Below the pieces are notes generated by a model, which was not told the origin of the DNA, did no database searches, and saw nothing but the letters and a program-made list of their open reading frames with translations. From contig PBTH01000062.1 in assembly GCA_002726495.1 (NCBI GenBank), forward strand, positions 9,239-73,238: DNA of 64,000 nucleotides, written 5' to 3'. The stretch comes from Methanobacteriota archaeon (GTDB lineage Archaea > Thermoplasmatota > Poseidoniia > Poseidoniales > Poseidoniaceae). Shown here in pieces: positions 4,151 through 64,000 of this stretch. The translations under genes were made by a program, and so were the position numbers. Every line of letters starts with the position of its first letter. Position 1 is the stretch's first letter.

Positions 4151-4202
4151 AAATCCCCATTTCCCACGTACTCTTTGATTGTTCGGTTGAATTCTTTGAA
4201 GT

Positions 4203-12256: not shown

Positions 12257-12381
12257 ACTTGTTTGTACTCGCCAAGGGTTTTGACCCTTTGCACGATTTC
12301 ATGGTTCAAACACTGATTTTCATCAAGCGCATGAAGGGTGACATTGAATTACACGCCCCGAATGGAAGGACAGGTGGGAGT

Positions 12382-22459: not shown

Positions 22460-23841
22460 CGGGAATCCTCAGCGAGGAAATCAGAGACGACATGGGCCGT
22501 TTGGTCCCGCATTTCATGGAGCGATGACATCCATTCAGTCGCTCTGTCAATACAAAGTTGCTTCATTTCACCTGCAAGGATTTTTCCTGCTCTATAATCG
22601 GAATTTATCTCAGCCAAATAAGCATCATCATCCTCAAAGAAATACATCATGTATTGATAGGCTACATCGATGTCTGGATTTCCACCCAAGCGACGATGTT
22701 CTTCAACGGTTGCTTGACTGCCCGAAAAGGCACGCTTGATTTTCTTTTCAACAGCCTTGAGGTCATCGCTCAAAAATAAAGTAGTTTTTGGCTTACTGCT
22801 GCTCATTTTATCACCAGTCATTCCAACTGCAAAGTGATGATATGTGGATGATGGCGCAAGCAGACCTGGACCTCCCAACTCCCTCTCAAGTGACAACAGT
22901 GCCATTCGTATTCCGTGACGGTCCCTGGTTGTGGCGGAAGGAACATGAACAGCACCCTGTTTTGGATTTGACATGATATCTGAAAATCCGAGATCCGTTA
23001 AGGCATCAACAATCCGAGAAAAGACGCTTTCTACCTTGGCTCGGTCAACCCTTCCATTTGCCATTTGTCCAAATGCTCCTGCATTTTCATCATGGATTGA
23101 AAGGCTGATGCTCAGCCCTCGTGAAGATGCATCTTTGAGATTAAACCAGTTTGTTTTGTTCGCCAATCCTCGGGTCAACCTTAGATGTGGGTCTTGGTCA
23201 ACTCCCACAGGTACAACGATGGGACGTAGACCTCCGAATTCATCTGTTTGTGGATGTAAGATATCTCCGACTTGAACAAGAGGTGCTTGTACATGAGCGA
23301 GATTTGTCTCTCCATTGAAACCATAAATCGCTTCAAATTCGTTGAGATTTGTACGCTTACCGAGTTGAAATCCTAACCTCTGAACAATCGGTCTTCTGGA
23401 CTGGAAGTAAACATTCGTTTTTTCGGGGTCAAGACCCAATGCTGCATAGTTTGCGATGTATTCCTCAAGAGCGATTTTGCGACCTTTATCTAGACTCACG
23501 CCACGTGTGGCTTGACTCTCTAAATCTGCAACGGCGATGGTAACATCTCCACCGTGCTGTTGAAACCACTTTACCTGCTCAATAACCATTGAGTGTCCAA
23601 GGTGCATTTGGCCACTTGGCATTAGCCCTGTGAGTACTCCAAACGGATCTCCTTTTCGTTGAGCTTCTTGTACAACATCAAGGTCACGATGAGCAAAGAT
23701 GATTCCGCGGCGGTGAAGTTTGGAGGGGTTCGAGACGGTTGATGGTATGAGTGGAGTCAGCCCGAATTGGTCAATAATTCGCCCATAATCGGTTGATTGC
23801 GCACTTCCCCACGGGTCAATGGTGATGTCCTCGTCGCCCAT
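22456..23841 (-). CDS. trpS: tryptophanyl-tRNA synthetase (archaeal/eukaryotic type)
   Basis: Class I motifs HIGH (MHLGHSM) and KMSKS (GDKMSSSKP). The N-terminal DPWGS..DYGRIIDQFG is typical of TrpRS. Confidence 0.8.
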   Translation of the reverse strand: MGDEDITIDPWGSAQSTDYGRIIDQFGLTPLIPSTVSNPSKLHRRGIIFAHRDLDVVQEAQRKGDPFGVLTGLMPSGQMHLGHSMVIEQVKWFQQHGGDVTIAVADLESQATRGVSLDKGRKIALEEYIANYAALGLDPEKTNVYFQSRRPIVQRLGFQLGKRTNLNEFEAIYGFNGETNLAHVQAPLVQVGDILHPQTDEFGGLRPIVVPVGVDQDPHLRLTRGLANKTNWFNLKDASSRGLSISLSIHDENAGAFGQMANGRVDRAKVESVFSRIVDALTDLGFSDIMSNPKQGAVHVPSATTRDRHGIRMALLSLERELGGPGLLAPSSTYHHFAVGMTGDKMSSSKPKTTLFLSDDLKAVEKKIKRAFSGSQATVEEHRRLGGNPDIDVAYQYMMYFFEDDDAYLAEINSDYRAGKILAGEMKQLCIDRATEWMSSLHEMRDQTAHVVSDFLAEDSR

Positions 23842-23867
23842 ACAGGTTGCCTCGTGATGAATCTCGG

Positions 23868-25157
23868 TTACTCCTCGGCATCAAGGCTTCGCTTCATCTC
23901 GTGGGGATACGGTTGTTTTTCGTGGATTCGTCCCTTTCCGAAATAAGGAGCAAGTGGGCCGATATTTTCCCGCCCAAGAACTGCCATCATGGCAACGGTT
24001 GTAGTAAAGCCAATTCCAAGAACAGCATAAGGCATCCAGGCTGCCTCTCCATCTGCTGAACGAGGCGTTAGCAGCCATGTGAATCTCACATTATCCTCTT
24101 CAAGAAACCGTTTGGACCATTTGAACAAATCGCTGGTTGCGTGGCCCGCAACAGTAACCGCTGAGGAATGATTGTTCCAAAATTCCGTTAGCCCAAGGAC
24201 ATCATAATCGACCTGTGTATCATTGAAATGAATCTCGGTTGGTTCTCCGTCCTTAACAGAGATAAGAACTGTGCCATCGCTTTGTTGTCTCCAGCCCTGC
24301 ATTGCATTAACTTCACCCTCTATAGAAAGTGCATATGTGCCGTTTATTGAGACATTTACCACATCGGCAGAACCAACATTTAATCTCCAGGTGAGTGGGA
24401 GATTCCAACCAACATGGTCTCCCGAGGTACACGCCTCGGTTAGAAGTGATTCAAAATTCACAATTGACCCTTGTTCTGTCTCTATTTTGGAATGAGACAA
24501 TTCATAGCAACGGTGAGCTTCCCAGTAGGACCATGCTTCACCCCATGTGGTGAGCCATATGTCTTCTGACTCATGAAGATAATTAAGCACATCACGGTCA
24601 TGGCGAACCGTTGCATCATTGACTCTTCCGATCCAGTAAAGATTCACCAAACCTCCTGCTTCAATCTCTTCTTGGACCGATTCTAAAGAGGCCATCCCTT
24701 TCTCAAGACTCCCTCCTCTTCTGCCTAAATTGTACCAGTCCCATAGGTCGACTGGGGTATCGGAGGAATTGTGCCACGCCGTTGATTCTACTCCTGTATT
24801 ATCACCGTGAACTGCAAATCCTTGAGAAGCAATTTGTTCATGTTGAGATGAACTTAATGTTGAAGGGGTAAAGGTCGACAACGGATGTTCGCCCCATTTA
24901 CTTGCGTTGATTCTTTCTTCAATATAGGATTTGCACGATTGAGCGACTGCCCCGGGGTCATTAATCCAACTTAGACCTGGCATTCCGTAGCAACCAAATT
25001 CATCACCAAGGTCCAATCGGTCAGAACCATATGAGGTTTGGAGCCATCCATCTTCTTCCCAAGAACTCTGTGCAAGAGCCACCGGGTGAAGCATAACAAG
25101 AACAAGCGTACTGGTTAGCAAAATGGAGACCATATGTCGTGTTGTGGAGCCCCCCAT
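23868..25157 (-). CDS. exported hypothetical protein with signal peptide and C-terminal TM anchor
   Basis: Signal peptide MGGSTTRHMVSILLTSTLVLVMLHPVALA and a C-terminal TM (MPYAVLGIGFTTTVAMMAVLG). The start is chosen at the Met that gives a canonical signal peptide. No recognisable catalytic family. Confidence 0.5.
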   Translation of the reverse strand: MGGSTTRHMVSILLTSTLVLVMLHPVALAQSSWEEDGWLQTSYGSDRLDLGDEFGCYGMPGLSWINDPGAVAQSCKSYIEERINASKWGEHPLSTFTPSTLSSSQHEQIASQGFAVHGDNTGVESTAWHNSSDTPVDLWDWYNLGRRGGSLEKGMASLESVQEEIEAGGLVNLYWIGRVNDATVRHDRDVLNYLHESEDIWLTTWGEAWSYWEAHRCYELSHSKIETEQGSIVNFESLLTEACTSGDHVGWNLPLTWRLNVGSADVVNVSINGTYALSIEGEVNAMQGWRQQSDGTVLISVKDGEPTEIHFNDTQVDYDVLGLTEFWNNHSSAVTVAGHATSDLFKWSKRFLEEDNVRFTWLLTPRSADGEAAWMPYAVLGIGFTTTVAMMAVLGRENIGPLAPYFGKGRIHEKQPYPHEMKRSLDAEE

Positions 25158-25382
25158 AAACTTGGCTTGAACCCTTTCCCTTTGACGGTTGTTGTTTGAC
25201 CGTGTGCTGTTCTCAAAACCGTACATTGGTCGGGAATAAGAGAACAAGAGTGAAAACCAAATCGCTTTCATCACGATTACATGGAGAAAGGTGACGAGGT
25301 GAGAGAAGGCTGGTCACTGCTTGTGAATCACTGGCAAATTCCTCCCGCCTCTGCATCTGTCCCCTCAACGCCTACTTACAGC

Positions 25383-31993: not shown

Positions 31994-34288
31994 ATGGAAA
32001 GAAGAAGTAGGGGCGTGCTTTTTCTTGTACTCCTACTAACTTGCAGCCTCGTTTCACTTCCAGGTGAAGCGGAAAACAATTCATTGGAAGAAATCAATCA
32101 GACTCCGGGTTGCAACGCACACCGTGAAAACTGGACCGTCGGTTTGGTCTTTTGCACCAATGAATCTCAAGCCGGTTATACTCTAGTTTCGCCGTTTCGT
32201 ACTTCAATGGCCTACTTAATTGACCAAGAAGGACGGGAAATAAACACCTGGCAGTCACCAGGAGGCTACACGCCGGGTGCAGCAGCGTACTTGCTAGAAG
32301 ACGGAAGTCTTCTTCGGACCGGTAACATCGGTAATTCATCTGTTGGTAATTTTACAGGTGGAGGAATCGGAGGCAAGTTGGAACGTATCGGATGGGATGG
32401 AACGCTCGAATGGTCGTGGGAATATTCCTCCTACGATGCAATTCTACATCACGATATAGAACCGATGCCAAACGGGAATATTCTCGCTATTGCTTGGGAG
32501 GAAAAAAGTGAACAAGAGGCGATTGAAGCAGGTCGCAATCCTGCAATTGCAAGTGACGGCCCCGGTGGACAGAACAATGTTTGGCCAGACCACATTATTG
32601 AAATCCAACCCGTTGGAACTGACCAAGCAAACATCGTGTGGGAATGGCATGCTTGGGACCACTTGATTCAGGATTATGACGCCACCAAGAATAATTTTGG
32701 AATCGTTGAGGACCATCCCGAATTGCTAAACATCAACTATGTAACTCAAACAGGAAACCAAGCTGGGAGAGCAGACTGGATGCACTGCAATGGAATTGAC
32801 TACAACGAACAATTGGACCAAATTCTTCTGTCGTGCAAGGGAATGGATGAAATTTACATCATCGATCACAGCACGACCACTGGAGAAGCTGCTGGGCACT
32901 CTGGAGGAACGTACGGAAAAGGTGGGGATTTCCTCTACAGATGGGGCAATCCACAAGTCTACAAAAAAGGACTTTCAAGCAATCAACAACTGTTCGGCCA
33001 GCATGATGCTCAATGGATCGTGGACGGCCACCCCGATGCCGGTAAATTGATTGTATTCAACAACGGCGCTGGTAGACAAACACCCCACTCCAGCGTTGAG
33101 ATTCTCGATACGGGTGTTGAGGACGGCACCTATCCAATCCTTGCAAACGGAACGTTTAGTCCTGGCCATCCAACATGGTCTTGGAGTGAGGAAGGGATGT
33201 ATGCATCCATTGTTTCAGGAGCGCAGAGCTTGTCTAATGGAAACATTGTGGTCTCTATTGGCACCGTTGGCACTTTACACGAAATCACATCAACAGGTGA
33301 ATTGGTTTGGACGTACATCAACCCCATTGCAAACAATGCCACCCACCCTCAATCCGAGCCATTGTTACCGGGAAATATTGCAGGTACAACCAACAACATG
33401 TTGTTCAAAAGCCAGCGTTACGAAGCAAATTTTGCAGGTTTTGTTGGAAAGGACCTCACGCCCGGTGCATATCTTGAGCAATGGACGGATTTATGCCCGC
33501 AAGAATCTGCTTGGAAGTGGGATTCGGACGGTGATGGTTGTATTGATGACAGCGATGGAGACGGAGTTAACGACCCATACGACCGATGTGTAGTTGGTGA
33601 TGATAGTGTTGATGTTGATCAGGATTCAACTCCTGATGCTTGCGATTCATTTGTAGATTCAGACGCAGATGGCATAGAAGACCTTGCTGACCTCTGCCAG
33701 GGCCACTCGGACTCAATTGACATTGACAATGACAGAATTCCAGATGGCTGCGATGAACTCATTGATTCTGATTTAGATGGAGTTGCTGATAGCCTTGACC
33801 AGTGCCCTGGACATGACGATGAAATGGATGCAGATGGTGATGGTATTGCGAACGGTTGTGATGAGACTCCTTTCGCAACAAGCCTCGAGACTGAACATGA
33901 ATCCCAAAACATAACCACTGGACACACCGAGAAGGACAATGATGATACTGTATTGAATACAGAATCCTCTGAAGGCGACCGTGGAGGGGTTTCAATGTTG
34001 ACATTGCTCGGTTATGTGCTGATGCTACTTGGTTTGTGGCTGTTTATCTATCTTGCAATGGTCGCAGTTGGTAAGGGAAATTCATCTCAGCCAAACTTGA
34101 CATTCCAGGATGAGTTTGCACCAAATCAAGAGATTGTGAAACATGTTCCGGCTGTTGACCAGTCGCCGAGTTACGACAGCCCTCTCCCACCGCCCCTGCC
34201 CGCTACAGGCCTGCCAGATGGCTGGACTATGGAACAATGGAATTATTACGGAAATCAATGGCTTGAGCAAAATGAACGACGAGGATAA
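31994..34288 (+). CDS. surface protein: signal peptide, arylsulfotransferase(ASST)-like beta-propeller, thrombospondin type-3-like Ca-binding repeats, TM anchor, short cytoplasmic tail
   Basis: Signal MERRSRGVLFLVLLLTCSLVSLPGEA. ASST-like motifs HHDIEPMPNGNILAI, WEWHAWDHL, HCNGIDYN. Multiple DxDxDGxxD/CxxxxD repeats (DSDGDGCIDDSDGDGVND...). TM segment VSMLTLLGYVLMLLGLWLFIYLAMVAV. Tail ending LPDGWTMEQWNYYGNQWLEQ. Confidence 0.8.
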   Translation: MERRSRGVLFLVLLLTCSLVSLPGEAENNSLEEINQTPGCNAHRENWTVGLVFCTNESQAGYTLVSPFRTSMAYLIDQEGREINTWQSPGGYTPGAAAYLLEDGSLLRTGNIGNSSVGNFTGGGIGGKLERIGWDGTLEWSWEYSSYDAILHHDIEPMPNGNILAIAWEEKSEQEAIEAGRNPAIASDGPGGQNNVWPDHIIEIQPVGTDQANIVWEWHAWDHLIQDYDATKNNFGIVEDHPELLNINYVTQTGNQAGRADWMHCNGIDYNEQLDQILLSCKGMDEIYIIDHSTTTGEAAGHSGGTYGKGGDFLYRWGNPQVYKKGLSSNQQLFGQHDAQWIVDGHPDAGKLIVFNNGAGRQTPHSSVEILDTGVEDGTYPILANGTFSPGHPTWSWSEEGMYASIVSGAQSLSNGNIVVSIGTVGTLHEITSTGELVWTYINPIANNATHPQSEPLLPGNIAGTTNNMLFKSQRYEANFAGFVGKDLTPGAYLEQWTDLCPQESAWKWDSDGDGCIDDSDGDGVNDPYDRCVVGDDSVDVDQDSTPDACDSFVDSDADGIEDLADLCQGHSDSIDIDNDRIPDGCDELIDSDLDGVADSLDQCPGHDDEMDADGDGIANGCDETPFATSLETEHESQNITTGHTEKDNDDTVLNTESSEGDRGGVSMLTLLGYVLMLLGLWLFIYLAMVAVGKGNSSQPNLTFQDEFAPNQEIVKHVPAVDQSPSYDSPLPPPLPATGLPDGWTMEQWNYYGNQWLEQNERRG

Positions 34289-43004: not shown

Positions 43005-43520
43005 ATGCAGGACGAACGTTTGTTGGAAGTGAGTCCCGAATTCTTGGTTCGGGCCATTCTTCATCGCCGTCAACGGCTTGCAGAAATGATTCCAAAACAG
43101 CTTGAATCTCGCAAAGATGAGAAGGAAATTGCAGAGGCATTGGCAAGAGATGCTAAACAACGTAGAGACGAGATCAAAACAAACCTGGACGAATTCTCTA
43201 AACAACTGAAAAAACTCGACGAGGGCAGCCCCCAACACGAAAAAATGCTTGTTGAGCGGGATACATTCATTCAGGAGGCTCAAAAATCCGAGCATGAGTA
43301 TCTAGAAAATGAACTCTTCAGAAGAAGGAGCGATTCCAGAACCAAGCGACTCACACATGCACTGAACGATTGTGAACGTTCGATTGAATACTGGGAAGGA
43401 GTGCTTGATAATGGATTTGAAGAGCTCCTTGTCGATGCTACACGGGTCAAACAAGGAGGACCCTCAAGTTATGCTCTATCAAAAGGAGCAAAACCTGAAA
43501 GGAGGTTGAAAAATGAGTGA
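43005..43520 (+). CDS. hypothetical coiled-coil protein
   Basis: 171 aa, charged and helical. Its stop overlaps the next gene's start by 8 nt (operon). Confidence 0.5.
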   Translation: MQDERLLEVSPEFLVRAILHRRQRLAEMIPKQLESRKDEKEIAEALARDAKQRRDEIKTNLDEFSKQLKKLDEGSPQHEKMLVERDTFIQEAQKSEHEYLENELFRRRSDSRTKRLTHALNDCERSIEYWEGVLDNGFEELLVDATRVKQGGPSSYALSKGAKPERRLKNE

Positions 43521-45534
43521 GAAACCATGCCCTCACACAGGCTTTTCATCATCCCAACAAAAGCAGTGGCCACTTCTTCATTCCCAATTGCTGGGAACTC
43601 TTGAACTTGAAGGAATAGAATCCATTTCAGAATCATATCTGAAACAACTCTCCGAAGAGATTTCCTCTACGATTCAGAATTCCGCAATGAGCAGGGAAGA
43701 AACAAAGGCCCGTGAGCGAATCTATCAACATCTCAAACACAATATTGAACACAAACTTGCAGGCAGTAAACTCCACGCCTTTGGCTCAACTCAGTCTCAA
43801 ACCTCATTGGGTGTCGGAGATCTTGACCTTTGTCTTGTTGTTAATGGCCCATCTCCAAGAAAAATCCTCAACAAAATACGAAACATTTTGACCGAACTTG
43901 AAATGAATGAAATTGAGGTTATTGGCCGTGCGAAAGTACCCATTATCAAATTCAAAGAACCCGAAACCGGACTGCCTATCGACATCTCTGTCAACAATGA
44001 GCTTGCACTTTACAATACTGAACTTATTCGGTCATATGCAGATACTCATCCGATGGTCCGCAATGCTGTTCTAACCGTGAAATTCTGGGCATCTTCTCGC
44101 GGTATCAATCAGGCCTTTATGGGGACCTTGTCTTCATATGCATGGACGCTGATGGCATTGGCTGCCATGCAATTGGATCCAAAGGTCCAACTGCCAAACC
44201 TGCAAAAAAACGCTGACAAAAACATCATCCGTTTGGACGAAGAATACGATGTAGGATACAATTCAGAATCCAATTTTGAATGGAATCCTGAACTGGACCT
44301 GGCCACATCTTTTGTCGCTTTTATTCACCGATTTGTATTTGATTGGCCATTTGAAGAAGATGTTATCTCAATACGCAACGGCGGAACGCTCTCTCGCAAA
44401 GATAAGAATTGGAATCAAGGTGAGCCAGAAGCATTTGATCTGCTTCCAGACTCTCTTGACCGAAGACTTGGCCTGCATTCCATGCCGATTGAAGACCCAT
44501 TTTCACTCAACCATGATTTAGGCCGTGTATTGAGGCCGTCAGGCTATCTCACAATTAGAGAAGAATTCCTCAAGGCATGGCTCGGTTTGCTAAAATCCGA
44601 ACCGTGGTCAGAACTTTCCAAAAAGGAGAATGTAAGTGTAATCGAAGAATTTGATTTGTTTGAAGACTTACGACCACGAGCAATGGATGAAGTCCATGCG
44701 CTGCATCAAGAAGTACTTGACAATCTTTCCCGAGTTGAGGAAGAAGGGAGAACCTTTAGCGCACAACGTAAATCCATCAGTCAAGCCATTCAGTTTGCCT
44801 TGGGCAAGAGGGATACTCCACCTCAAGGTTCAATCGGCCCAGAAGATGACCGCTCTGAAGAAATCAATGATTCTAAATCACAACTGGACGATTTGACCTC
44901 CCAAAGGGATGAATTGGTAGGCAACATTGTCATCTCATCTCCAAAGATATCCGAAACACTTCGACAAACATTTGATCGGATTACGGAACAATTGGATGTG
45001 ATGAACATCCCTTCATTGGAACGTGAACAAGAGCTTGCATCCCTCTTTTTAGAACTTCAAAGCATGCATCCAATCGGTAAAGAAGTTGACCGATTGAATC
45101 GAGAAATCCATCTCATAAAGAAGCCACTTCATGGCAACATCAAACACCTCAACAAAGCCGAAAAGAAAATGAAACGTTCACTGCGAACCAATAAGAAAGA
45201 AGCCAAAAAATTACGTCGTGAAAAAGGCCGCCTTGAATCGTGGATTCGTATCAAAAATGGACCGAAAAAACCACGAAAAAACGACAGGCAGCGTGGAAGA
45301 AAACATCGGGGACCAAAACCAAGTGATGTCAAAAAGAAAATGGATTCTGGTGAATCGCTTTCTATGGAAGATCTCAGTGCGTTATTACAGCATGGAGGTG
45401 TCCTCAATATGGACGCAAAGAACGGTAACTCTCGCCAGGGTAAGCGGAAAAATAAGGGCAAAAACAACTCTTCTAATCACCAAGTCAAGCGTGGTAAGCG
45501 AGGAAAAGGCAAGCACAATCAACGAAGGGATTGA
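43513..45534 (+). CDS. Cid1/GLD-2/Trf4-family nucleotidyltransferase (non-canonical poly(A) polymerase / terminal uridylyltransferase-like) with PAP-associated domain and basic C-terminal tail
   Basis: Pol-beta NTase catalytic motif LHAFGSTQSQTSLGVGDLDLCLVV (GS...DxD) with the third Asp in IDISV. PAP-associated-domain hallmarks: AKVPIIKF...GLPIDISVNNELALYNTELIRSYADTHPMVRNAVLTVKFWASSRGIN...GTLSSYAWTLMALAAMQ and IEDPFSLNHDLGRVL. The C-terminal roughly 150 aa are Lys/Arg-rich (KKPRKNDRQRGRKHRGPKP...KRGKRGKGKHNQRRD). Confidence 0.75.
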   Translation: MSEKPCPHTGFSSSQQKQWPLLHSQLLGTLELEGIESISESYLKQLSEEISSTIQNSAMSREETKARERIYQHLKHNIEHKLAGSKLHAFGSTQSQTSLGVGDLDLCLVVNGPSPRKILNKIRNILTELEMNEIEVIGRAKVPIIKFKEPETGLPIDISVNNELALYNTELIRSYADTHPMVRNAVLTVKFWASSRGINQAFMGTLSSYAWTLMALAAMQLDPKVQLPNLQKNADKNIIRLDEEYDVGYNSESNFEWNPELDLATSFVAFIHRFVFDWPFEEDVISIRNGGTLSRKDKNWNQGEPEAFDLLPDSLDRRLGLHSMPIEDPFSLNHDLGRVLRPSGYLTIREEFLKAWLGLLKSEPWSELSKKENVSVIEEFDLFEDLRPRAMDEVHALHQEVLDNLSRVEEEGRTFSAQRKSISQAIQFALGKRDTPPQGSIGPEDDRSEEINDSKSQLDDLTSQRDELVGNIVISSPKISETLRQTFDRITEQLDVMNIPSLEREQELASLFLELQSMHPIGKEVDRLNREIHLIKKPLHGNIKHLNKAEKKMKRSLRTNKKEAKKLRREKGRLESWIRIKNGPKKPRKNDRQRGRKHRGPKPSDVKKKMDSGESLSMEDLSALLQHGGVLNMDAKNGNSRQGKRKNKGKNNSSNHQVKRGKRGKGKHNQRRD

Positions 45535-46028
45535 GGTATTTGAAATCGGTCATCTGGCAGCAAGGTATTGAACCAAAAAACATGACATATGCTGCTTGTA
45601 ATCAAGTGCTTACATTGTTTTTTGACGAGACCGGTGAACGTTATACTGAGACCTCAGTTCGCCACCTACCTATTCCCAATTGGAGTGGAAACTTAATTCT
45701 CACAAATCCTTCAGGTGACGACCCCACAAAAATCCTCGGCGTACTGTGGGCAACACCCTTCAAGGATGACATCGTACGCGTGGCTGCTTTCGTTATTCAC
45801 TCCGAGTTCCAAGGCGTTGGCCTGGGAAGTTTGGCTTGGAACCGGTTTGTTGAGGCTGCATTGGATGCGGGTTATCGCCGTGTACAATTGGAAGTAATGG
45901 CTAGCAATATTGACGCTCAACGATTCTATCAGCGTAGGGGCATGGCGGTTGAAAAGCATCTTGAAGGCTACTACAAGTCTGGATTGGGCTACATGATGCG
46001 TGGACCACTACAATCTGTTAATGAATAA
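45531..46028 (+). CDS. GNAT-family N-acetyltransferase
   Basis: Acetyl-CoA binding motif A (VIHSEFQGVGLGSLA) and motif B (RRVQLEVMASNIDAQRFYQRRG). Start overlaps the stop of the preceding gene (ATGA). Confidence 0.7.
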   Translation: MRYLKSVIWQQGIEPKNMTYAACNQVLTLFFDETGERYTETSVRHLPIPNWSGNLILTNPSGDDPTKILGVLWATPFKDDIVRVAAFVIHSEFQGVGLGSLAWNRFVEAALDAGYRRVQLEVMASNIDAQRFYQRRGMAVEKHLEGYYKSGLGYMMRGPLQSVNE

Positions 46029-51120: not shown

Positions 51121-54100
51121 TCACGATTGGAAGGGAAGCCATTCTTGAGAAGCAGCATCAAAGTACGAAAGATTGCCTTCGGCATCACGGGACCAATGTA
51201 CACCGTTCTCTTCCCATTGTTCTACATTTGATTCAATGGAAGGGAGGGCTTTGTCTTCGCTTGCTGCATATTGCTCGGATGCAGCATCGGTCGTCACGTT
51301 GGAATCGAACATTGTGCTTGTATCGTCCGGTTTACGCATGAACATGAAGCCAGCGCCACCTGCAAGAGCGAGTACCAAGAGTGTGATGATTCCATAGAGC
51401 ATTCCGTTGCCGGAATCTGCGACCTCGGTAACCGAGCGAGTTGCATCTTCAGGGTAAGCATCCAGACGGTCTGCAACACCGTCTCCATCGGTATCCAGAG
51501 ATTCGTTAGCATTGAATTTGAAATCGTCCTCTGCGTCACTTACTCCATCACCATCAGAATCCAACTGCAGTAATGCACAGCCATTGGCATCAATGAGTTC
51601 GCCTGCGGGGGTGTTCGGGCAATTGTCAAGATGGTTTTTGATACCGTCTTCATCATCGTCTTTTTGTTGCTCAGCACACCCGTCAAGGTCCACTGGTTGC
51701 GTGATTGGTGTGTCGGGGCATTGGTCCACATTGTTCATGATATCATCCAAATCTTCGTCCTTTTGAGAGTCAGAACAACCATCGCTATCCGGTTGTTCAC
51801 CCGCAGGGGTAACCGGACATACATCACTGGCATCAGAAATTCCGTCATTATCAGCGTCCAACTGGTTGGTTGCGCAACCAAGGAGGTTGACACTCAATCC
51901 ATTTCCAGTACCCGGGCAATTATCAACATCATCAGCAACTGTATCTCCATCCGTATCCTTCTGAGATGGGGCGCAGCCTTGAGCATCTGCAACCTCATTG
52001 GTTGGAGTTGAATCACAAATATCGCTTGCGTCAACAACGTTGTCTCCATCGGTATCTCTCTCATTTGCAGCACAGCCAACGCCGTTAACCGGCAAACCTG
52101 CGGTGGTGGTTGGGCAAAGATCTCTGTCGTCGGTAATGTCGTCGTCATCGGTATCGAGTTGACTGAGGGCGCATCCTGCTGCATCAACGGTTAGCCCAAG
52201 AGGCGTATTTGGACATGCATCAAATGCATTCATGACCATGTCGCTATCGCTGTCCTCTTGACTTGAGGAGCAACCTACATTGTCAACTTGTTCTCCAGCT
52301 GGCGTTCCTGGGCAAGCATCACTTGCGTCGTTAACTCCATCCATATCGCCATCGAGTTGAGATGCAGCACAGCCGTTTGAATCAACAGATTGGCCGGCTG
52401 GTGTACCGAGACATTGGTCCCCGTTGACACCACTGGCATTGTCGCCGTATCCGTCATTATCTTGGTCGGCCCACTGAGTCGGGTCATTCGGGAACGCATC
52501 GCCATTCAAACCGGCTGCATTATCACCGTAACTATCGCCATCCGAATCACTCCATTGGGTTGAGTCCAATGGGAAGGCGTCGGGGTTGTTACCTGCTTGA
52601 TTGTCACCAAATCCATCTCCATCTTCATCAAACCATTGCGTGTTATCACTTGGGAATTGATCTCCATTGTTTCCATTTGGATTGTCACCGTAGCCATCAC
52701 CATCTGCGTCTTCCCACTGAGTTGAGTCGCTTGGGAAAGCGTCGGGTGTTGTTCCTGATGGATTATCACCATAACCATCACCATCTGCATCGGACCATTG
52801 TGTAGAATCACTTGGGAAAGCGTCGCCGTTAGTCCCCGAGGGGTTGTCGCCATACCCGTCTCCATCGGAGTCTTCCCATTGGGTTGAATCCGCTGGCCAT
52901 GCATCGGGGTAGTTACCTGTGGCATTGTCCCCATAACCATCACCGTCTGAGTCTGACCATTGGGTTGAATCGGTAGGGAATGCATCAGGATAGTTGCCCG
53001 TTGCGTTATCTCCATATCCATCACCGTCTACATCGGACCATTGAGTTGAGTCGTTAGGGAAAGCATCAGGGGAGTTTCCACTTGCATTGTCCCCATACCC
53101 GTCTCCATCCATGTCTGAATACTGAGTGGAATCATAGGGGAATGCGTCGATGTTGTCGTTGTATCCATCGTTATCACTGTCTTTTTGATCCAATGCACAG
53201 CCGGACAAGTCAACCGTTGCTCCGGGGGTTGTATTGGGACACAGGTCCAATTCATTCGCAACACCATCGCCGTCATCGTCGATGGAAAGAACGAAACAAT
53301 CTGAATCTCCGATGAGTTGAACATTCACGGCCGAGTAGAGGTCAGCAAAGACACAGTAGGTACCTGATGAGGATGGTGTGGTGTAATTGAAGTAGGGCAA
53401 GGACATGTTTTGTGCAGTAGCAGTTACAGAAGTTAACGTTGAAAGCGCTATGTTCGCGCCCGATGAATCCTCAACCCGATATTGATATTTGTAACTGTCA
53501 CCTGTTACCAAATCTAAGCCTTCAGCCCTAACGTTATTGGTTGAAGCAGTGGAACTTGCAGAATAGGAATTGATCACCAATGCTGGCAGCTGAGGGATGA
53601 ATTCAACAAAATGGTCACCGGTGATATTGTCACTGGTGTCAATGTTAACTACAGAATTATTGAGAGAGAGTTCAACATAGAACATGTGGTCATTCATGGT
53701 CGTTGGTCCAGCCCAAGTGATTTGATGGCTTATCGATGAATTAACTGGAGTAAAGGTCCAAGTGTCTGAATCGATCATTGAAGCGTTGATGGCTGTGTTT
53801 GTATCGTTTGAGACAGTGAAATTATTAAACAACTCTTGATAATCCAAGGTAATCCAACGCAATGAATAATCTGTTCCTATGGAAAGATTGGTCAAGAAAA
53901 TATCACCAGTTGTTGAGGATGTCGCTGATGCTTCAACCATCTCAAGGTACACTTCACCCATGCCGCTATTCAAGGCCATTCCTGAAGCATCGCTTAGGGT
54001 TGATGAAACCATGAGGTCGGATTCGGCCAATGTCGTTTGAATTGAAATGTTCACCGAATGTGTGGTATTGGTTGCGTTGAATGTACCGTTTGAGGAGGCA

Positions 54101-55185
54101 GCCCAAACTTCACCATCGTCAAGATACATTTGACCGTAGGATGAATTGTAAGAATAATTTGTTCCAACGGTAAGACCTGAGAATGTAAGCATTGCAGAGG
54201 TTCTATTGGTGATGCTAACCTCCACTAGTTCCATACTTTGACCGCCACCAGGATTGTCGGTTGTGATTTCAATATCATAGATGTTCGTCGCAGAAGACCA
54301 TCCGTAAACATCAAGATACGTAGTTTGATTAGAAGAAGCAGTTACCTGCATCGATTCAACATTCGAAGTCCCACCAGAACTCGATAGATAACTTCCAGAA
54401 GCCGAATCCCATCCAGTGTCAATGTCACCACCGACATGGTTGAAGGTGATGTTGGCGTAGTAAGTGACGCCGCTGATCATGTCAATTTGGAAGTAATCAA
54501 CATCGGTTGATGAGTCAATGGAAAGTCCAGTACATGTCAAGGGTAGAAGTGAAGCTTGCGAGGCAGTTGCCGTCGTATCATTCGGTTCAAGAATATCAGA
54601 AGCGAGCGTGTTGTTTCCAGAGCAGTTTGTCACTGATGAGCCGTTACCACCGCCACCAGTACCACTACTAACGGTGAATTTGTTTAACGTTAGATTCCAA
54701 CTGCCCACTCCAGCATAACGTGAGATCTCGATGTAAACCATTCCTCCATGGGCGCTGGTCGTATTTGTGGTCAATGTTTCGGGATTGTTTGCGTAGGAGT
54801 CATCGAGGTAGGTGAGATTGGCATCATAAAACAAGAGGTCAAAGTCGTTGAGAACCGTAGTCCCGTTTGCAAAAGTCGTGGACGATGGGAAGGAAAGCGA
54901 AGCATACAGGCCTTGATTGGCGGTTAACGCTACTCTGAGATAATCGGAATCATCACCGTAATCGAGTTCTCCGTTGCCATTGTAGGTCCCTGAAAAGATG
55001 TAATTGGTGATATTAACCGTCGTGTTATCGGGTAGATCTCCGCCAGAACCGAGGTCATTTTGGTTAACACCCACGGCAGAAACACCGGGAGTCGTTAGAG
55101 ATAGGAGTGAAGTAATCATCAACATTAGGGCTACCGAAATAGACCTTGCGGGCTGATTGCTCTTCGGATTAGGACGTTGCGCCAT
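51121..55185 (-). CDS. giant surface protein with massive thrombospondin type-3/OmpA-like Ca-binding repeat arrays, signal peptide, C-terminal TM anchor and W-rich cytoplasmic tail
   Basis: 1354 aa. Signal (ISVALMLMITSLLSLTTPGVSA), about 650 aa of Ser/Thr/Asn-rich beta domains, nine near-identical 23-aa repeats (DAFPxDSTQWSDxDGDGYGDNxxGxxP), then about ten DxCPxTPxGxxVDxxGCAxSQxDxDxDG repeats. TM (MLYGIITLLVLALAGGAGFMFM). Tail ...VEQWEENGVHWSRDAEGNLSYFDAASQEWLPFQS. Confidence 0.85.
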   Translation of the reverse strand: MAQRPNPKSNQPARSISVALMLMITSLLSLTTPGVSAVGVNQNDLGSGGDLPDNTTVNITNYIFSGTYNGNGELDYGDDSDYLRVALTANQGLYASLSFPSSTTFANGTTVLNDFDLLFYDANLTYLDDSYANNPETLTTNTTSAHGGMVYIEISRYAGVGSWNLTLNKFTVSSGTGGGGNGSSVTNCSGNNTLASDILEPNDTTATASQASLLPLTCTGLSIDSSTDVDYFQIDMISGVTYYANITFNHVGGDIDTGWDSASGSYLSSSGGTSNVESMQVTASSNQTTYLDVYGWSSATNIYDIEITTDNPGGGQSMELVEVSITNRTSAMLTFSGLTVGTNYSYNSSYGQMYLDDGEVWAASSNGTFNATNTTHSVNISIQTTLAESDLMVSSTLSDASGMALNSGMGEVYLEMVEASATSSTTGDIFLTNLSIGTDYSLRWITLDYQELFNNFTVSNDTNTAINASMIDSDTWTFTPVNSSISHQITWAGPTTMNDHMFYVELSLNNSVVNIDTSDNITGDHFVEFIPQLPALVINSYSASSTASTNNVRAEGLDLVTGDSYKYQYRVEDSSGANIALSTLTSVTATAQNMSLPYFNYTTPSSSGTYCVFADLYSAVNVQLIGDSDCFVLSIDDDGDGVANELDLCPNTTPGATVDLSGCALDQKDSDNDGYNDNIDAFPYDSTQYSDMDGDGYGDNASGNSPDAFPNDSTQWSDVDGDGYGDNATGNYPDAFPTDSTQWSDSDGDGYGDNATGNYPDAWPADSTQWEDSDGDGYGDNPSGTNGDAFPSDSTQWSDADGDGYGDNPSGTTPDAFPSDSTQWEDADGDGYGDNPNGNNGDQFPSDNTQWFDEDGDGFGDNQAGNNPDAFPLDSTQWSDSDGDSYGDNAAGLNGDAFPNDPTQWADQDNDGYGDNASGVNGDQCLGTPAGQSVDSNGCAASQLDGDMDGVNDASDACPGTPAGEQVDNVGCSSSQEDSDSDMVMNAFDACPNTPLGLTVDAAGCALSQLDTDDDDITDDRDLCPTTTAGLPVNGVGCAANERDTDGDNVVDASDICDSTPTNEVADAQGCAPSQKDTDGDTVADDVDNCPGTGNGLSVNLLGCATNQLDADNDGISDASDVCPVTPAGEQPDSDGCSDSQKDEDLDDIMNNVDQCPDTPITQPVDLDGCAEQQKDDDEDGIKNHLDNCPNTPAGELIDANGCALLQLDSDGDGVSDAEDDFKFNANESLDTDGDGVADRLDAYPEDATRSVTEVADSGNGMLYGIITLLVLALAGGAGFMFMRKPDDTSTMFDSNVTTDAASEQYAASEDKALPSIESNVEQWEENGVHWSRDAEGNLSYFDAASQEWLPFQS
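52440..53150 (-). repeat. about nine tandem 69-bp in-frame coding repeats (TSP3-like Ca-binding units) inside the giant protein gene
   Basis: Repeated DNA blocks, e.g. ...ccattgggttgaatc...ccatcaccgtc...gcatcagg..., encode the reiterated DAFPxDSTQWSDxDGDGYGDN unit. The boundaries are approximate. Confidence 0.7.
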
Positions 55186-59884: not shown

Positions 59885-59995
59885 ATGTCCGATGAGCAAA
59901 CATCAAACGATCCACCCCAAAGTGCGTACTTCCTTGGCTTTGCCCTTGCAATAGTTCTTCTTGGAATTACCATGTTCCAATACCCACTTTGGTGA
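59885..59995 (+). CDS. candidate 36-aa hydrophobic micro-protein
   Basis: ATG at 59885 preceded by GAGGAGAG at an 8 nt spacing. Encodes MSDEQTSNDPPQSAYFLGFALAIVLLGITMFQYPLW, a single TM helix. Below the 60-aa ORF track cut-off. Confidence 0.3.
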   Translation: MSDEQTSNDPPQSAYFLGFALAIVLLGITMFQYPLW

Positions 59996-60051: not shown

Positions 60052-61836
60052 ATGTGCGGCATTGGCGGTATGCTTGGCCATCCAGATATCGCCGTGGCGC
60101 AGCGAATGAACAAGTTGCAAATTCACCGCGGCCCTGACGGCCAAGATACTTGGTCTGATGAATTCATAGCGCTTGGACATACACGCCTTGCCATTGTTGA
60201 CCTGAACGGGAGTCAACAACCGATTCATGGTCCAAATCAGCAGACACTAATTGTCAACGGTGAAATCTACAACCATTTGGAATTGCGAAGCAGGCATCCA
60301 AACTACCCGTTTACGACCTCAGGTGATAGCGAGGCAATACTCGCCCTCCACAACCATTGTGTGACGCAATACCAACGAATTCCAACCGCTGAAGACCATG
60401 CATCGTGGCTATCACAACTTGACGGAATGTATGCTATCGCACTATGGGATGGCAACAACCGTCAACTGGTTCTTGCTCGAGATACACTTGGAATCAAACC
60501 CTTGGTCAAATGCGAAGTTGAAGGTACACTTCTTTTTGCGAGCGAAGTCAAAGCATTACGCAGTGATGAGCGCCATGTTCCAGAACTTGATGACTTGGCG
60601 CTTGCGGCAAGAATGGTGTGGGAATATCCATTGGATGCAACGACCCTCCTCAAAGGAGTGACACAAGTTCGGCCTGGAACGGTTGAGACATGGGAACTCA
60701 ACGAACAAGGAGATGCTTTTCTTTCCGGTAAAGCAACCATTGAGCACCGAACCATTTCACCTAAACAATCATGGTCGCCGGTCACACAAGCACCGATACT
60801 GCTGGATTCGTTTATTTCGAGCGTACAACAACGACTCATGGCTGATGTCCCAGTTGGAATTGTGTTGTCAGGTGGGCTGGATTCCAGTCTTGTCGCGGCG
60901 GTTGCTCAAGAAGCATCCATGCGAGCGAAACAACCCGTTCCGGAATGTTGGACAGTCGCCGAAAGTGAAGACAATCCAGATTGGAAAGCAGCAGAGATTG
61001 TCGCTTCACACTTTGATCTCAAACATCATCAGCATATCCTTGACCCCGATGCGTTTGACCGCGCCCTTCCAAATCTCATCTGGCATGGAGAAGACTTGGA
61101 TGTGACGGTATTGTTTTTCCAGCCCCTCTTTGAAACGATGTCAAAACATGTCAAGGTTGGCCTTTGCGGCCAAGGAGCCGATGAATTGCATGCTGGATAT
61201 CCTCGCTACAGAAATCTTCCGAGCCATGCAAAACTTCTCAGAGAACGATTAAACGCACTTCCTTCTCAACTTCAACATGCATTAGAACACGGGTCTCTGG
61301 ATGAAACCGAAGGCTGGCTAAAGCCATACCACCGACCAGAAGAAACTGCAAACTCTCTATCTGAGACCCTACAGTTTGAATTGGATCATGGGCAACTCAG
61401 TAATTTCCAGCTTCGGCTGGTTGACCGACATTCAATGGCTCATTCACTTGAAGTGAGAGTGCCCTTCCTCGGAAGGCCTCATCTTGAATGCGTGAATTCA
61501 TTGCCAATGGCGTGGAGGTTGCCTCCAAGTTTTGAAGAAAAAGCGGCTCTACGTGAGGCCGCTGACCTCACCGGTTTGCCGAAGGAAATCGTACGTCGAC
61601 CGAAGATGCCAGCCGGAAGGGCGACATCTCCTACGATGTTGGAGATGTTTTTGAAGGAATATTCCACCCAAACTCAGCAACTCGTCAAAAAGTACGAAAC
61701 ATTGTCACCCTTATTCAAGGGACAATCTGAACTTGCCCTCGGACTCGGCCTATTTGAGGCGATGCACATCGTTAATGGTGGAAGGATTAAGAAAGACGGA
61801 GACATAATCACATTGCTTGATGAGGTGATAGCATGA
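60052..61836 (+). CDS. asnB: asparagine synthetase (glutamine-hydrolysing) family
   Basis: N-terminal MCGIGG (Ntn Cys nucleophile) and PP-loop SGGLDSS. 594 aa. Confidence 0.85.
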   Translation: MCGIGGMLGHPDIAVAQRMNKLQIHRGPDGQDTWSDEFIALGHTRLAIVDLNGSQQPIHGPNQQTLIVNGEIYNHLELRSRHPNYPFTTSGDSEAILALHNHCVTQYQRIPTAEDHASWLSQLDGMYAIALWDGNNRQLVLARDTLGIKPLVKCEVEGTLLFASEVKALRSDERHVPELDDLALAARMVWEYPLDATTLLKGVTQVRPGTVETWELNEQGDAFLSGKATIEHRTISPKQSWSPVTQAPILLDSFISSVQQRLMADVPVGIVLSGGLDSSLVAAVAQEASMRAKQPVPECWTVAESEDNPDWKAAEIVASHFDLKHHQHILDPDAFDRALPNLIWHGEDLDVTVLFFQPLFETMSKHVKVGLCGQGADELHAGYPRYRNLPSHAKLLRERLNALPSQLQHALEHGSLDETEGWLKPYHRPEETANSLSETLQFELDHGQLSNFQLRLVDRHSMAHSLEVRVPFLGRPHLECVNSLPMAWRLPPSFEEKAALREAADLTGLPKEIVRRPKMPAGRATSPTMLEMFLKEYSTQTQQLVKKYETLSPLFKGQSELALGLGLFEAMHIVNGGRIKKDGDIITLLDEVIA

Positions 61837-63035
61837 CCAATGTCCACGATTTGACCTCTGTCCTCGAGTCCATGCGGAAAGAAATTACGGCATGGATGGC
61901 AACAAAGCGGGAAGAGATCTCCATCCCAATTTATGGCAGCGTTGACATTCGCGATGCCGGTTGGAAAGTGGGAGTGGTTGATGCCAACCACTTTCCCGCT
62001 GGATTCAATAACATCGCAGAGGATGATTTCCCCCATCTTTCTGAATTGTTTAAGGCTCACATCTTGAGAACAAAACCAGAGTGTAAATCCGTCCACATCT
62101 ATCCCGAAAGCCACACGAGGAACCTTGGATATATTGAGAACATCGCAACGATTCAGCGCTTGATAAAAGGGGCTGGTTTTGTTTGCACAGTTGGGTCACC
62201 TGAGCTGTCTGAACTGGGCTTTCTCAAAGGAATATCTGGCCCACTGAAACTTGAGCCAGTTGATGTTGATTCCGAGGGAGAACTCATCGTTGGAGGTGTA
62301 AAGCCTGACCTCATTTTGTTAAACAACGACCTCACCAACGGAAAACTTCCAGGATTGACATCTCCAAGTGTGACACCCCCTACTGAGATGGGTTGGCATC
62401 AGCGGAAAAAATCTGAACATTACAGGTGTCTACAAGGATATGTTGATGAAATTTCAGAAATGATTGGAATTGACCCCTGGCACCTCATGCCAGAGTGGTT
62501 TGTTTCCAAAGACAAGTGCTTAACAGAAGAGGCATGCAAGACAAAACTCGCCAGTGAAATCAATGAATTCATTGCAAAAATACAAGCACGCTATGATGCA
62601 TATGGAATTGATAGAACTCCGGCTGTTGTCATGAAAAACGATAGAGGCACCTATGGTTTGGGGATTATGATACTCACTTCAGGAGACCAGATACTCAACC
62701 TGTCAAACAGAAAAATCAACAAATTAAGGTATGCAAAAGGCGGAGCAGATGTTGAAAGTTATTTGATTCAAGAAGGAATTCCTACTGGCATGCTAACGGA
62801 TGATGGTGAGCCTGTTGAACCGGTCGTTTACCTTGTTGATGGAGAAGCGGCAGCTTGGTTCTATCGCATCAACCCCAAAAAATCAGACATGGACAACCTT
62901 AATTCACCAAGTGCTCGCTTTGAGAATTACACACGCTCCGGTGACAAGTACGGAACCCATGCTCACGGGTGGCATGCTCTTCTCGCAGAGTTAAGCATGC
63001 TTGCCATGGGCGCTGAATTAAACATTAAACGGTGA
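61833..63035 (+). CDS. putative ATP-grasp/carboxylate-amine ligase (glutathionylspermidine-synthase YgiC/YjfC-like or GshA-like), tentative
   Basis: 400 aa. Segments LLNNDLTNGKLPGL (compare NNADTP of GspS-like pre-ATP-grasp), VVMKNDRGTYGLGIMIL (ATP-grasp-like) and YAKGGADVESYLIQEGIP. Start overlaps the asnB stop (ATGA). The family call rests on weak motif similarity only. Confidence 0.4.
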   Translation: MTNVHDLTSVLESMRKEITAWMATKREEISIPIYGSVDIRDAGWKVGVVDANHFPAGFNNIAEDDFPHLSELFKAHILRTKPECKSVHIYPESHTRNLGYIENIATIQRLIKGAGFVCTVGSPELSELGFLKGISGPLKLEPVDVDSEGELIVGGVKPDLILLNNDLTNGKLPGLTSPSVTPPTEMGWHQRKKSEHYRCLQGYVDEISEMIGIDPWHLMPEWFVSKDKCLTEEACKTKLASEINEFIAKIQARYDAYGIDRTPAVVMKNDRGTYGLGIMILTSGDQILNLSNRKINKLRYAKGGADVESYLIQEGIPTGMLTDDGEPVEPVVYLVDGEAAAWFYRINPKKSDMDNLNSPSARFENYTRSGDKYGTHAHGWHALLAELSMLAMGAELNIKR

Positions 63036-63039
63036 TTAT

Positions 63040-64000
63040 ATGGCGACGATTCATTGTCTAGGCAGCGGCTTAGTAGGGGCATTTGTTGTCCGGCACTTGG
63101 TTGAAGCTGACCACGATGTTCATGTCTACGATTTGAAAGCAAGTGATGTCGATGGCATCACAATGCACATTGGAGACATTACGGGGGAACTTGGCCGTAT
63201 TCCCGAGGGATTGATTGTCAACATGTTGCCTGGTGATATCGGGGGTGGCTGTACTGAAAGTCTTGTAGAACTCGGAAGAACCGTTGTGGACTTATCGTTT
63301 GCTGAAGAGACACCTGACCGGCTCCAACAAAAAGCATTGGATTCCAATGCGACTGTGGTCTGGGATGTTGGTATTGCCCCTGGTTTGTCGAACATGCTTC
63401 TTGCTGAGGCTCAAGAAAAATTAGGAGCGTTCAAAAATGCGGAAATAAGGGTAGGTGGGAATCCTGGCCAACCCGACGATGAGTGGTCATATATGGCCCC
63501 ATTTTCTCCAATTGATGTGATCGCAGAATACACCCGCCCTGCACGGGTCATAAGAGATTCAACGCTTGCAACCCTACCTGCTCTCGATGAGCGACACATC
63601 ATCAACGTAGGAGGTAAAGGAGAAATGGAGGCATTCCTTTCAGATGGCCTGCGCTCACTTTTGTTCACAATCAATGCACAAGATATGTCAGAATATACGG
63701 TCCGGTGGCCCGGACACATACAACGTTACATCGATGAGCGAGATGCTGGTACATTGGATGTTGAGAAATTATTGGATTCTTGGTCTCTTGACAAAGGTCG
63801 GAGTGAATTTACTTGGATGGAAGTCAAAGCAGAGGGAAAACATCACCGGCATATCTGGACGGTGATGGACAAAGGTAGTGGCAACGATTCTTCAATGGCT
63901 AGAACGACCGGCCTGGTCACCATAGCAACGGTATTGACCATGTGTGAGCATCCTCAAATCCTATCCCATGGAGTCCATTCACCAGAACAACTCCCGCCAG
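63040..64000 (+). CDS. saccharopine dehydrogenase-like NAD(P)-binding protein (carboxynorspermidine/saccharopine dehydrogenase family), 3' partial
   Basis: Rossmann motif MATIHCLGSGLVGAFVVRHLVEADHDVHVYD, then the saccharopine-DH-like pattern VVWDVGIAPGLSNML...IRVGGNPG. The ORF runs off the window end (no stop). Not in the supplied ORF track. Confidence 0.6.
   Translation, partial: MATIHCLGSGLVGAFVVRHLVEADHDVHVYDLKASDVDGITMHIGDITGELGRIPEGLIVNMLPGDIGGGCTESLVELGRTVVDLSFAEETPDRLQQKALDSNATVVWDVGIAPGLSNMLLAEAQEKLGAFKNAEIRVGGNPGQPDDEWSYMAPFSPIDVIAEYTRPARVIRDSTLATLPALDERHIINVGGKGEMEAFLSDGLRSLLFTINAQDMSEYTVRWPGHIQRYIDERDAGTLDVEKLLDSWSLDKGRSEFTWMEVKAEGKHHRHIWTVMDKGSGNDSSMARTTGLVTIATVLTMCEHPQILSHGVHSPEQLPP

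Follow-up and report, generated by a model that had tools for sequence, protein, structure and literature searches.

An asnB-like/gshA gene pair conserved across Thermoplasmatota: a candidate route to an amidated γ-glutamyl thiol

Introduction

What does a relative of asparagine synthetase do directly beside a putative glutamate-cysteine ligase in an uncultured marine archaeon? The question is raised by the 3′ end of a 64,000-nucleotide stretch of contig PBTH01000062.1 (assembly GCA_002726495.1), referred to here in its full length as the window, where an AsnB-like glutamine amidotransferase gene, a GshA-type ligase gene and a saccharopine-dehydrogenase-like gene follow each other closely on the forward strand. 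A sequence-only reading of this DNA had taken the three genes as a cluster for the synthesis of a modified polyamine, a γ-glutamyl compound or an opine-type compound. The analysis described here reveals that the conserved unit is a translationally coupled two-gene operon, asnB-like followed by gshA-like, found across Thermoplasmatota, and that the third gene is a lineage-specific neighbour outside that unit. The likely product class of the pair, as judged from its sequences, is a γ-glutamyl compound, as had been suggested, while the polyamine or opine product finds no support. The reading preferred here, to which a probability of roughly 0.4 is assigned, is that the pair would synthesize γ-glutamylcysteine (γ-Glu-Cys) and then amidate it.

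The genes concerned are the following.

59885-59995, forward strand: conserved single-pass membrane micro-open reading frame (micro-ORF) of 36 amino acids, sequence MSDEQTSNDPPQSAYFLGFALAIVLLGITMFQYPLW*
60052-61836, forward strand: AsnB-like glutamine amidotransferase of the 'CGQG' type, 594 amino acids, with the Pfam domains GATase_7 and Asn_synthase
61833-63035, forward strand: PF08886 GshA ATP-grasp ligase (Pfam GshA), 400 amino acids
63040-64000, forward strand: putative NAD(P)-dependent amine dehydrogenase, lysine 6-dehydrogenase (LysDH)-like, of the Sacchrp_dh_C family, cut at the window end with 320 of its 345 codons present

Coupling of the three genes is as had been described. The sequence ATGA at 61833-61836 unites the TGA stop of the asnB-like gene with the ATG of the gshA-like gene, whose own stop (63033-63035) is separated by 4 nucleotides (TTAT) from the ATG of the third reading frame at 63040. 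The earlier starting point of the cluster, 61833, leaves out the asnB-like gene (60052-61836), on which that reading relies. The window is archaeal, as evident from an archaeal RNase P RNA at 4206-4502 (reverse strand), and the homologues of the three genes lie in Poseidoniales, the Marine Group II (MGII) archaea.

Conservation of the asnB-like/gshA pair

One genome per GTDB species was scanned with a GshA alignment, and the flanks of the matches were searched by tblastn. In 48 of the 50 Poseidoniales species loci, over which the identity of the ligase declines from 70% down to 42%, the gene immediately upstream of gshA is asnB-like. Of the two remaining loci, L033 has no room upstream and L055 is a true exception. 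The same pair, with ligases 36-38% identical, is carried by three non-Poseidoniales Thermoplasmatota from the species scan, and a protein search seeded with one non-Poseidoniales member recovered it in all five more distant non-Poseidoniales loci as well as in the Poseidoniales-like locus L185; the pair is present in 8/8 of the Thermoplasmatota loci from outside Poseidoniales.

The junction between the two genes is conserved far beyond chance. Among the 65 loci with both genes, the stop-to-start spacing is −4 nucleotides in 31, −1 in 17, between +1 and +14 in 16, and +35 in one, and the stop and start codons overlap in 48/65. Furthermore, the overlapped pair is kept, down to about 40% identity, through three unrelated genomic contexts, which are a B12-binding/MeaB/membrane-protein context in Poseidoniales, one with a diphthamide synthase (Dph6) and a glutaredoxin-like/GST_N_3 gene upstream and UbiA downstream, and one with GST-like and HxlR genes upstream and a peptidase S15 gene downstream. 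The three-gene cluster of the sequence-only reading holds for these two members (65 loci), but of the roughly 45 Poseidoniales species loci that are informative, only 4 have the third gene next to gshA.

Whichever of the two genes is taken as the starting point, the partnership is exclusive in the samples examined. Of 27 bacterial PF08886 loci, none carries an asnB-like gene beside the ligase, and gshB is located directly downstream of the ligase in 15 of them. As a background for the amidotransferase, 80 diverse AsnB-like metagenome loci were taken from a scan with an AsnB-like alignment; as the alignment carries generic glutaminase motifs, its matches are mostly unrelated AsnB paralogues of soil and freshwater rather than distant members of the clade. 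Only the 4 'CGQG' loci among these 80 have a gshA beside the AsnB-like gene. A literature search returned no description of the pair.

L055 (1417-3823) is the sole Poseidoniales locus which has space upstream of gshA yet no asnB-like gene; the place is taken by a regulator-like gene (HFX_2341_N/HTH) and by a CPYC glutaredoxin gene in divergent orientation.

The GshA-type ligase

The middle gene had been proposed to encode an ATP-grasp ligase of the GspS/YgiC or GshA kind, and its product indeed matches Pfam GshA (PF08886) over the full length of the profile at E 7.7e-99 (331 bits against a cutoff of 25), and PDB entry 3k1t, 'Glutamate-cysteine ligase GshA', at E 6e-62. The orthologues in L180 and L184 score 302 and 353 on TIGR02049 (gshA_ferroox), above its equivalog cutoff. 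There are 28 invariant columns in the ligase alignment (A1), and 61 positions are jointly conserved between the Poseidoniales proteins and bacterial PF08886 members, the latter often linked to gshB. Four residue switches are specific to Poseidoniales, and the ligases of other Thermoplasmatota have the bacterial residue at 4/4 of them. Judged by these features, the window protein seems to be a genuine glutamate-cysteine ligase.

In a neighbour-joining tree of GshA, which is too coarse to tell one acquisition from two and was set aside, the non-Poseidoniales archaeal ligases are placed among bacterial ones and not beside those of Poseidoniales. A literature search for the PF08886 family in archaea found nothing.

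The AsnB-like amidotransferase

The AsnB-like protein comprises GATase_7 and Asn_synthase domains (Pfam, 2e-52). Its glutaminase site is intact, with an MCGI nucleophile and the motifs HTRLAIVD, VNGEIYNH and GDSEAIL, which correspond to R49, N74-G75-E76 and D98 of the E. coli enzyme. The PP-loop LSGGLDSS and the motif GADELHAGY are also present, the latter providing the equivalents of E. coli D351, E352 and Y357, which are required by asparagine-synthetase-like enzymes for adenylation of the carboxylate, where a Glu-Tyr dyad has its role (PMC13060819).

The site for aspartate is altered. Alignments made by HMMER to 1ct9 (E. coli AsnB) and 6gq3 (human ASNS), and by MAFFT, display four replacements in E. 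coli numbering, viz. R325 to F, E348 to Q, D384 to Q and R387 to L, all invariant in 46/46 gshA-linked homologues and in the wider clade. The motif around the catalytic Glu348, SGEGSDE in AsnB, reads CGQGADE in the window protein, as it does in each of the 46 homologues linked to gshA. Arg325 is said, in the work of Boehlein in 1997, to be needed for the formation of β-aspartyl-AMP. The E364Q variant of human ASNS, at the position of E. coli E348, is inactive, and D400 and R403 of the human enzyme are conserved residues of the synthetase site (PMC6748925); the Asp-Arg dyad equivalent to D384 and R387 binds the amino-acid moiety of the substrate (PMC13060819). Since the four replacements are fixed and human E364Q is inactive, the AsnB-like protein probably does not activate aspartate. 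Very probably it acts as an amide synthetase and not as an ordinary asparagine synthetase, in agreement with what had been suggested for this paralogue. Of the 80 background loci, 61 can be read at the E348 position: 27 have E, 22 have D, 4 have Q, all of them from this clade, and 8 have some other residue.

An assignment of the AsnB-like protein as AsnO, the amidotransferase of N-acetylglutaminylglutamine amide (NAGGN) synthesis, was considered and rejected, as it scores 234.5 bits on TIGR03104, far under the cutoff of 570, and has no Ngg partner. The glutaminase domain also bears an insertion in Poseidoniales (window 60340-60400, amino acids ∼100-118; also L053, L059 and L063), which is about 20 residues long here and 40-50 residues in MGIIb (Thalassarchaeaceae); the other Thermoplasmatota members lack it, as do E. 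coli AsnB and AsnO.

Thiol-related neighbourhood

The neighbourhood of the pair points to thiol chemistry. Small reading frames of the glutaredoxin/GST_N_3 fold end a few nucleotides before the start of the AsnB-like gene in L069 (CPYC), L077 (CHEC), L180 and L182, L055 has a CPYC glutaredoxin next to gshA, and GST-like and HxlR-type genes occur near the pair in L183 and L184. The archaeal flanks yielded no gshB; a review of archaeal thiols likewise lists no archaeal GshB, the PF08886 GshA family being outside its treatment (PMC7278568). Genes for glycans, peptides made on ribosomes and modified after translation (RiPPs) or cofactors accompany the pair in none of the three contexts, no GNAT domain was found with the pair, and a tblastn search with S. 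meliloti Ngg gave no match in the window or the archaeal loci. A PALP gene near the pair in L183 and L184 was also considered as a cysteine synthase; NCBIfam identifies it as threonine synthase, and it was dropped as evidence for thiol metabolism.

Proposed pathway and alternative explanations

In the proposed pathway, the PF08886 ligase would join the γ-carboxyl of glutamate to cysteine, giving γ-Glu-Cys, as suggested by its family membership and conservation. The AsnB-like enzyme, whose N-terminal Cys site is intact, would use that site to hydrolyse glutamine and would adenylate one of the dipeptide's carboxylates. The most plausible one is the free carboxylate of Cys, which is capped by glycine in glutathione. 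Transfer of the ammonia would then yield γ-Glu-Cys-amide, a 'minimal glutathione amide'. The amidotransferase would thereby hold the operon place of bacterial GshB beside the same ligase family, in an operon preceded, on this reading, by the micro-ORF in Poseidoniales and by a glutaredoxin/GST-N-fold gene in other lineages. The LysDH-like third gene would be unrelated to the pathway, probably belonging to lysine catabolism and relocated into the operon in some Poseidoniaceae. A wider claim, that Poseidoniales and other Thermoplasmatota use γ-Glu-Cys-amide as an undescribed thiol, with the AsnB-like enzyme having replaced glutathione synthetase for the capping step and with glutaredoxin/GST-fold proteins as its partners, is offered more tentatively than the pathway itself. 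Gene order, residue replacements, distribution and neighbours of the pair are observed here, and its substrates and product are predicted.

Several observations weigh against this pathway. The window ligase itself scores 284 bits on TIGR02049, narrowly under the cutoff of 293.9, natural γ-Glu-Cys-amide was not found in the literature searched, and the choice of the carboxylate to be amidated, as well as the order of action of amidotransferase and ligase, are pure inference. As every pair-bearing lineage belongs to one phylum, conservation of the pair could partly reflect inheritance of one ancestral operon. The AsnB-like protein reaches 346 bits on the asparagine synthase equivalog TIGR01536 (NCBIfam, cutoff 267). 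Moreover, the window encodes an asparaginyl-tRNA synthetase at 12193-13731 (forward strand; NF003037, 426.6 bits against a cutoff of 414); the cell therefore charges tRNA-Asn with free asparagine and needs a supply of it. A second asparagine synthetase was not seen in the 64-kb window and the flanks examined, and a literature search for asparagine auxotrophy in Poseidoniales found nothing.

Three of these facts, viz. the TIGR01536 score, the need for free asparagine and the single synthetase candidate, are in favour of two unrelated housekeeping genes in an inherited operon, the AsnB-like protein being a divergent asparagine synthetase and GshA making γ-Glu-Cys as the final thiol, as haloarchaea do in using γ-Glu-Cys without GshB (PMC7278568). 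This explanation, the strongest rival of the pathway, is nevertheless held to be unlikely. It must accommodate four fixed replacements among the residues for aspartate contact and activation, one of which alone, E to Q, inactivates human ASNS (PMC6748925), and an overlap kept through three contexts and down to about 40% identity, which is unusual for unrelated functions. The score itself is of limited weight against amide synthesis, as TIGR01536 is a broad model whose cutoff is exceeded by many paralogues that do not make asparagine.

Two further explanations alter one partner each, and both are considered improbable. The pair may make a non-thiol γ-glutamyl amide, such as an osmolyte dipeptide amide resembling NAGGN, with a ligase acceptor other than cysteine. 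The operon architecture and E348Q do mirror asnO-ngg, marine hosts need compatible solutes, and the four Poseidoniales-specific switches in the ligase are in accordance with a changed acceptor; however, the 61 positions held in common with bacterial gshB-linked glutamate-cysteine ligases speak for cysteine, the non-Poseidoniales archaeal ligases with the bacterial residue at 4/4 switches still have the AsnB-like partner, the glutaredoxin/GST-fold neighbours indicate a thiol, and the GNAT domain and Ngg homologue of the known osmolyte system were not found in the DNA searched. Alternatively, the AsnB-like enzyme may amidate another carboxylate, of an envelope glycan, a peptide or a cofactor, and be merely co-transcribed with a glutamate-cysteine ligase of a separate pathway. 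AsnB-like paralogues amidate many substrates (PMC13060819), 34 of the 61 readable background loci have a residue other than E at the E348 position, and the closest haloarchaeal plasmid homologue of the AsnB-like protein sits among glycosyltransferases. Against it stand the exclusive partnership and the three contexts, from which glycan, RiPP and cofactor genes are missing.

The third gene

The third gene encodes 345 amino acids in full, as recovered from identical contigs (L001:9190-10227), and carries the Pfam domain Sacchrp_dh_C (4.7e-21). A phmmer search of the PDB gave 3abi at E 3.6e-40, the next best match being at E 0.015. Its AlphaFold2 model (pLDDT 91) also has 3abi as the top Foldseek match (E 5e-31, TM-score 0.89, 30% identity). 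PH1688, the L-lysine 6-dehydrogenase of Pyrococcus horikoshii, is the protein of entry 3abi (PMC10413350). On the strength of sequence and model, the third gene, a homologue of PH1688, appears to encode a LysDH-type amine dehydrogenase. The two proteins are of one length class (345 here against 365 amino acids), and their identity, about 30% along the entire chain in Foldseek, rises noticeably in a 280-residue phmmer core with the motifs EAF(L/I)SDGLRS and EYTRPARVIR, whereas the N-terminal 55 residues align poorly and the genomic position of the LysDH-like gene varies among Poseidoniales.

The proposal that the third gene is a carboxynorspermidine dehydrogenase was not borne out. Sequence matches of the gene to structures of carboxyspermidine and carboxynorspermidine dehydrogenases (CASDH and CANSDH) are zero even at E≤10, and in Foldseek CASDH has a common fold at a TM-score of about 0.8 with 12-14% identity. 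A His-Glu-Glu triad is reported to be central to CASDH catalysis (PMC10413350); direct reading of the 345-residue sequence finds it nowhere. No carboxynorspermidine decarboxylase, which the sequence-only reading had advised looking for, is present within 9 kb downstream of the third gene. The LysDH match and these three negative results speak against a carboxy(nor)spermidine or carboxyaminopropylagmatine dehydrogenase, which was rejected. A lysine-biosynthetic saccharopine dehydrogenase was also rejected: only marginal matches to AASS (E 0.015) and saccharopine reductase (E 0.19) were obtained, and the neighbours are gshA, a 224-residue gene and a ferredoxin gene, with no lys genes.

The LysDH-like gene is a variable occupant of its slot. 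The slot after gshA is empty in L011 and L012 despite otherwise identical synteny, and in L018 it holds an arylsulfotransferase-like gene (L018:8262-10658). In MGIIb, the orthologue of the third gene (51-54% identity) stands alone between a tRNA-synt_1b gene (Trp/Tyr type) and a 364-residue gene. The block which hosts it there is found at 18.4-28.1 kb of the window, with a tRNA-synt_1b product 65% identical and a 468-residue product matching the 364-residue one at E 2e-40. The genes of this syntenic block are FttA, proteasome, ZPR1, a class-I tRNA synthetase, the 468-residue secreted or membrane protein, an acyltransferase, ThyA and DHFR. The slot of the LysDH-like gene is in the window an empty 26 nucleotides at 23842-23867 (block 22456-25274 against L007:4696-8335). 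As the gene adjoins gshA here and is syntenic elsewhere in MGIIb, with its slot empty in the window, it has evidently moved between loci.

That all three genes together make a compound of the opine type or a modified polyamine amide, the third gene supplying an opine dehydrogenase or one of the carboxy(nor)spermidine type, is accordingly regarded as very improbable indeed. The saccharopine-dehydrogenase fold in common with CASDH and the 4-nucleotide spacing, which suggests co-transcription in this species, are in its favour; they are outweighed by the closer relation to LysDH, the missing triad, sequence similarity and decarboxylase, and the absence of the gene from the slot in most relatives.

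Two side observations concern this slot. Arylsulfotransferase-like β-propeller proteins of 764-798 residues include one encoded in the window at 31994-34288 (forward strand), and a paralogue fills the post-gshA slot in another Poseidonia species. In the long-read assembly L014 (9212-10206) the LysDH-like gene is split into reading frames of 67 and 255 residues, while it is intact (331 residues) in the near-identical L013; either a pseudogene with a frameshift or a fault of the assembly accounts for the split.

Other features of the locus and window

The micro-ORF ends 56 nucleotides upstream of the asnB-like gene and is missing from the annotations of identical contigs. By tblastn, some 40 Poseidoniales loci have it in full length and in the same place, with 39-78% identity, and MGIIb gives a weak match. 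It has an acidic N-terminus, a DPPQ motif, one transmembrane helix and a C-terminal YP[LV]W motif, and a GGAGG-like 'gaggag' is located 5-10 nucleotides upstream; in Poseidoniales the operon may begin with this reading frame. Downstream of the third gene, identical contigs carry a 224-residue gene, then a 2x[4Fe-4S] ferredoxin gene and then a 94-residue gene. The syntenic neighbours of 224, 94 and 222 residues gave zero Pfam or NCBIfam matches. A scan of 59.5-64 kb for bacterial promoters and terminators was set aside as uninformative, because the models are bacterial and the host is archaeal.

Elsewhere in the window, 43513-45534 (forward strand) encodes a 673-residue protein with the architecture of a Cid1/TUTase-type non-canonical poly(A)/(U) polymerase (MTPAP-like_central, PAP_assoc, TUTase), as is typical of eukaryotes, and is overlapped by a GNAT acetyltransferase gene at 45531-46028 (forward strand). 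A 467-residue reading frame at 2852-4255 (reverse strand) has weak EF-hand pair and Tudor/Agenet-like matches, which in an archaeon are an unusual combination; the TTG annotated as its start lies within an overlap with the RNase P RNA gene, and the true start is probably further downstream. Two long reading frames on the reverse strand, one of 1684 residues at 4558-9612 with zero Pfam matches and one of 1354 residues at 51121-55185 with only a thrombospondin type-3 repeat, presumably encode surface proteins.

Significance

Low-molecular-weight thiols set the redox chemistry of the cell, and those of archaea are largely unknown outside haloarchaea and the cofactors of methanogens (PMC7278568). 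MGII archaea are uncultured, so their physiology must come from genomes, and Poseidoniales belong to the archaea that are most abundant in surface waters of the ocean; the pair would concern the redox buffer of globally abundant plankton. If the proposed pathway is true, thiol-cofactor biosynthesis would gain a new branch and the asparagine-synthetase superfamily a new class of substrate, and a large clade that at present carries the label 'asparagine synthase' would acquire a function. The prediction can be tested cheaply, with two genes and one mass. The polyamine or opine lead is at the same time corrected, the saccharopine-dehydrogenase-like gene being a relocated LysDH-type gene, as far as can be judged, outside the pathway.

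Comparison with known systems

Among characterized systems, γ-Glu-Cys-based low-molecular-weight thiols are exemplified by the glutathione amide of Chromatiaceae and the γ-Glu-Cys of haloarchaea. To our knowledge, no amidating enzyme has been identified for glutathione amide, and the pair described here hints where that step might be sought. Glutathione amide carries a terminal amide, and haloarchaea demonstrate that archaea can stop at γ-Glu-Cys (PMC7278568). The predicted product differs from the former, in which glycine is retained, and the haloarchaeal GshA is of another family and has no AsnB-like partner. The enzymes TsrC, ScdTA and PesC resemble the window protein in applying AsnB chemistry to a peptide C-terminal carboxylate and in keeping the Glu-Tyr dyad (E352/Y357) (PMC13060819); they differ in acting on ribosomal peptides within RiPP clusters, the loci here containing no precursor peptide or RiPP genes.

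The asnO-ngg operon of S. meliloti and P. aeruginosa has the same arrangement, an AsnB-like amidotransferase gene directly upstream of that for an ATP-grasp peptide ligase, with asnO of S. meliloti 2 nucleotides from ngg. The Ngg ligase makes the dipeptide N-acetylglutaminylglutamine (NAGG), whose C-terminal carboxylate is amidated by AsnO. Both AsnO and the window protein have Q at E348, AsnO being the one characterized Q enzyme found. In contrast, the ligase here is a PF08886 GshA rather than a GNAT and ATP-grasp Ngg, the Arg equivalent to R387 is kept by AsnO in the alignment and replaced by Leu here, and the neighbours are thiol-related rather than osmoregulatory. The bacterial gshA(PF08886)-gshB operons of the A. 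ferrooxidans type use the same ligase family, with the 61 common positions, and likewise couple the ligase to a second enzyme which modifies, or here is predicted to modify, the Cys carboxylate of the dipeptide. The partner is AsnB-like and upstream here, against an ATP-grasp glutathione synthetase downstream there, and the product would end in an amide instead of glycine. On the proposed reading, the pair would join glutathione-type thiol synthesis with dipeptide amidation of the asnO-ngg type.

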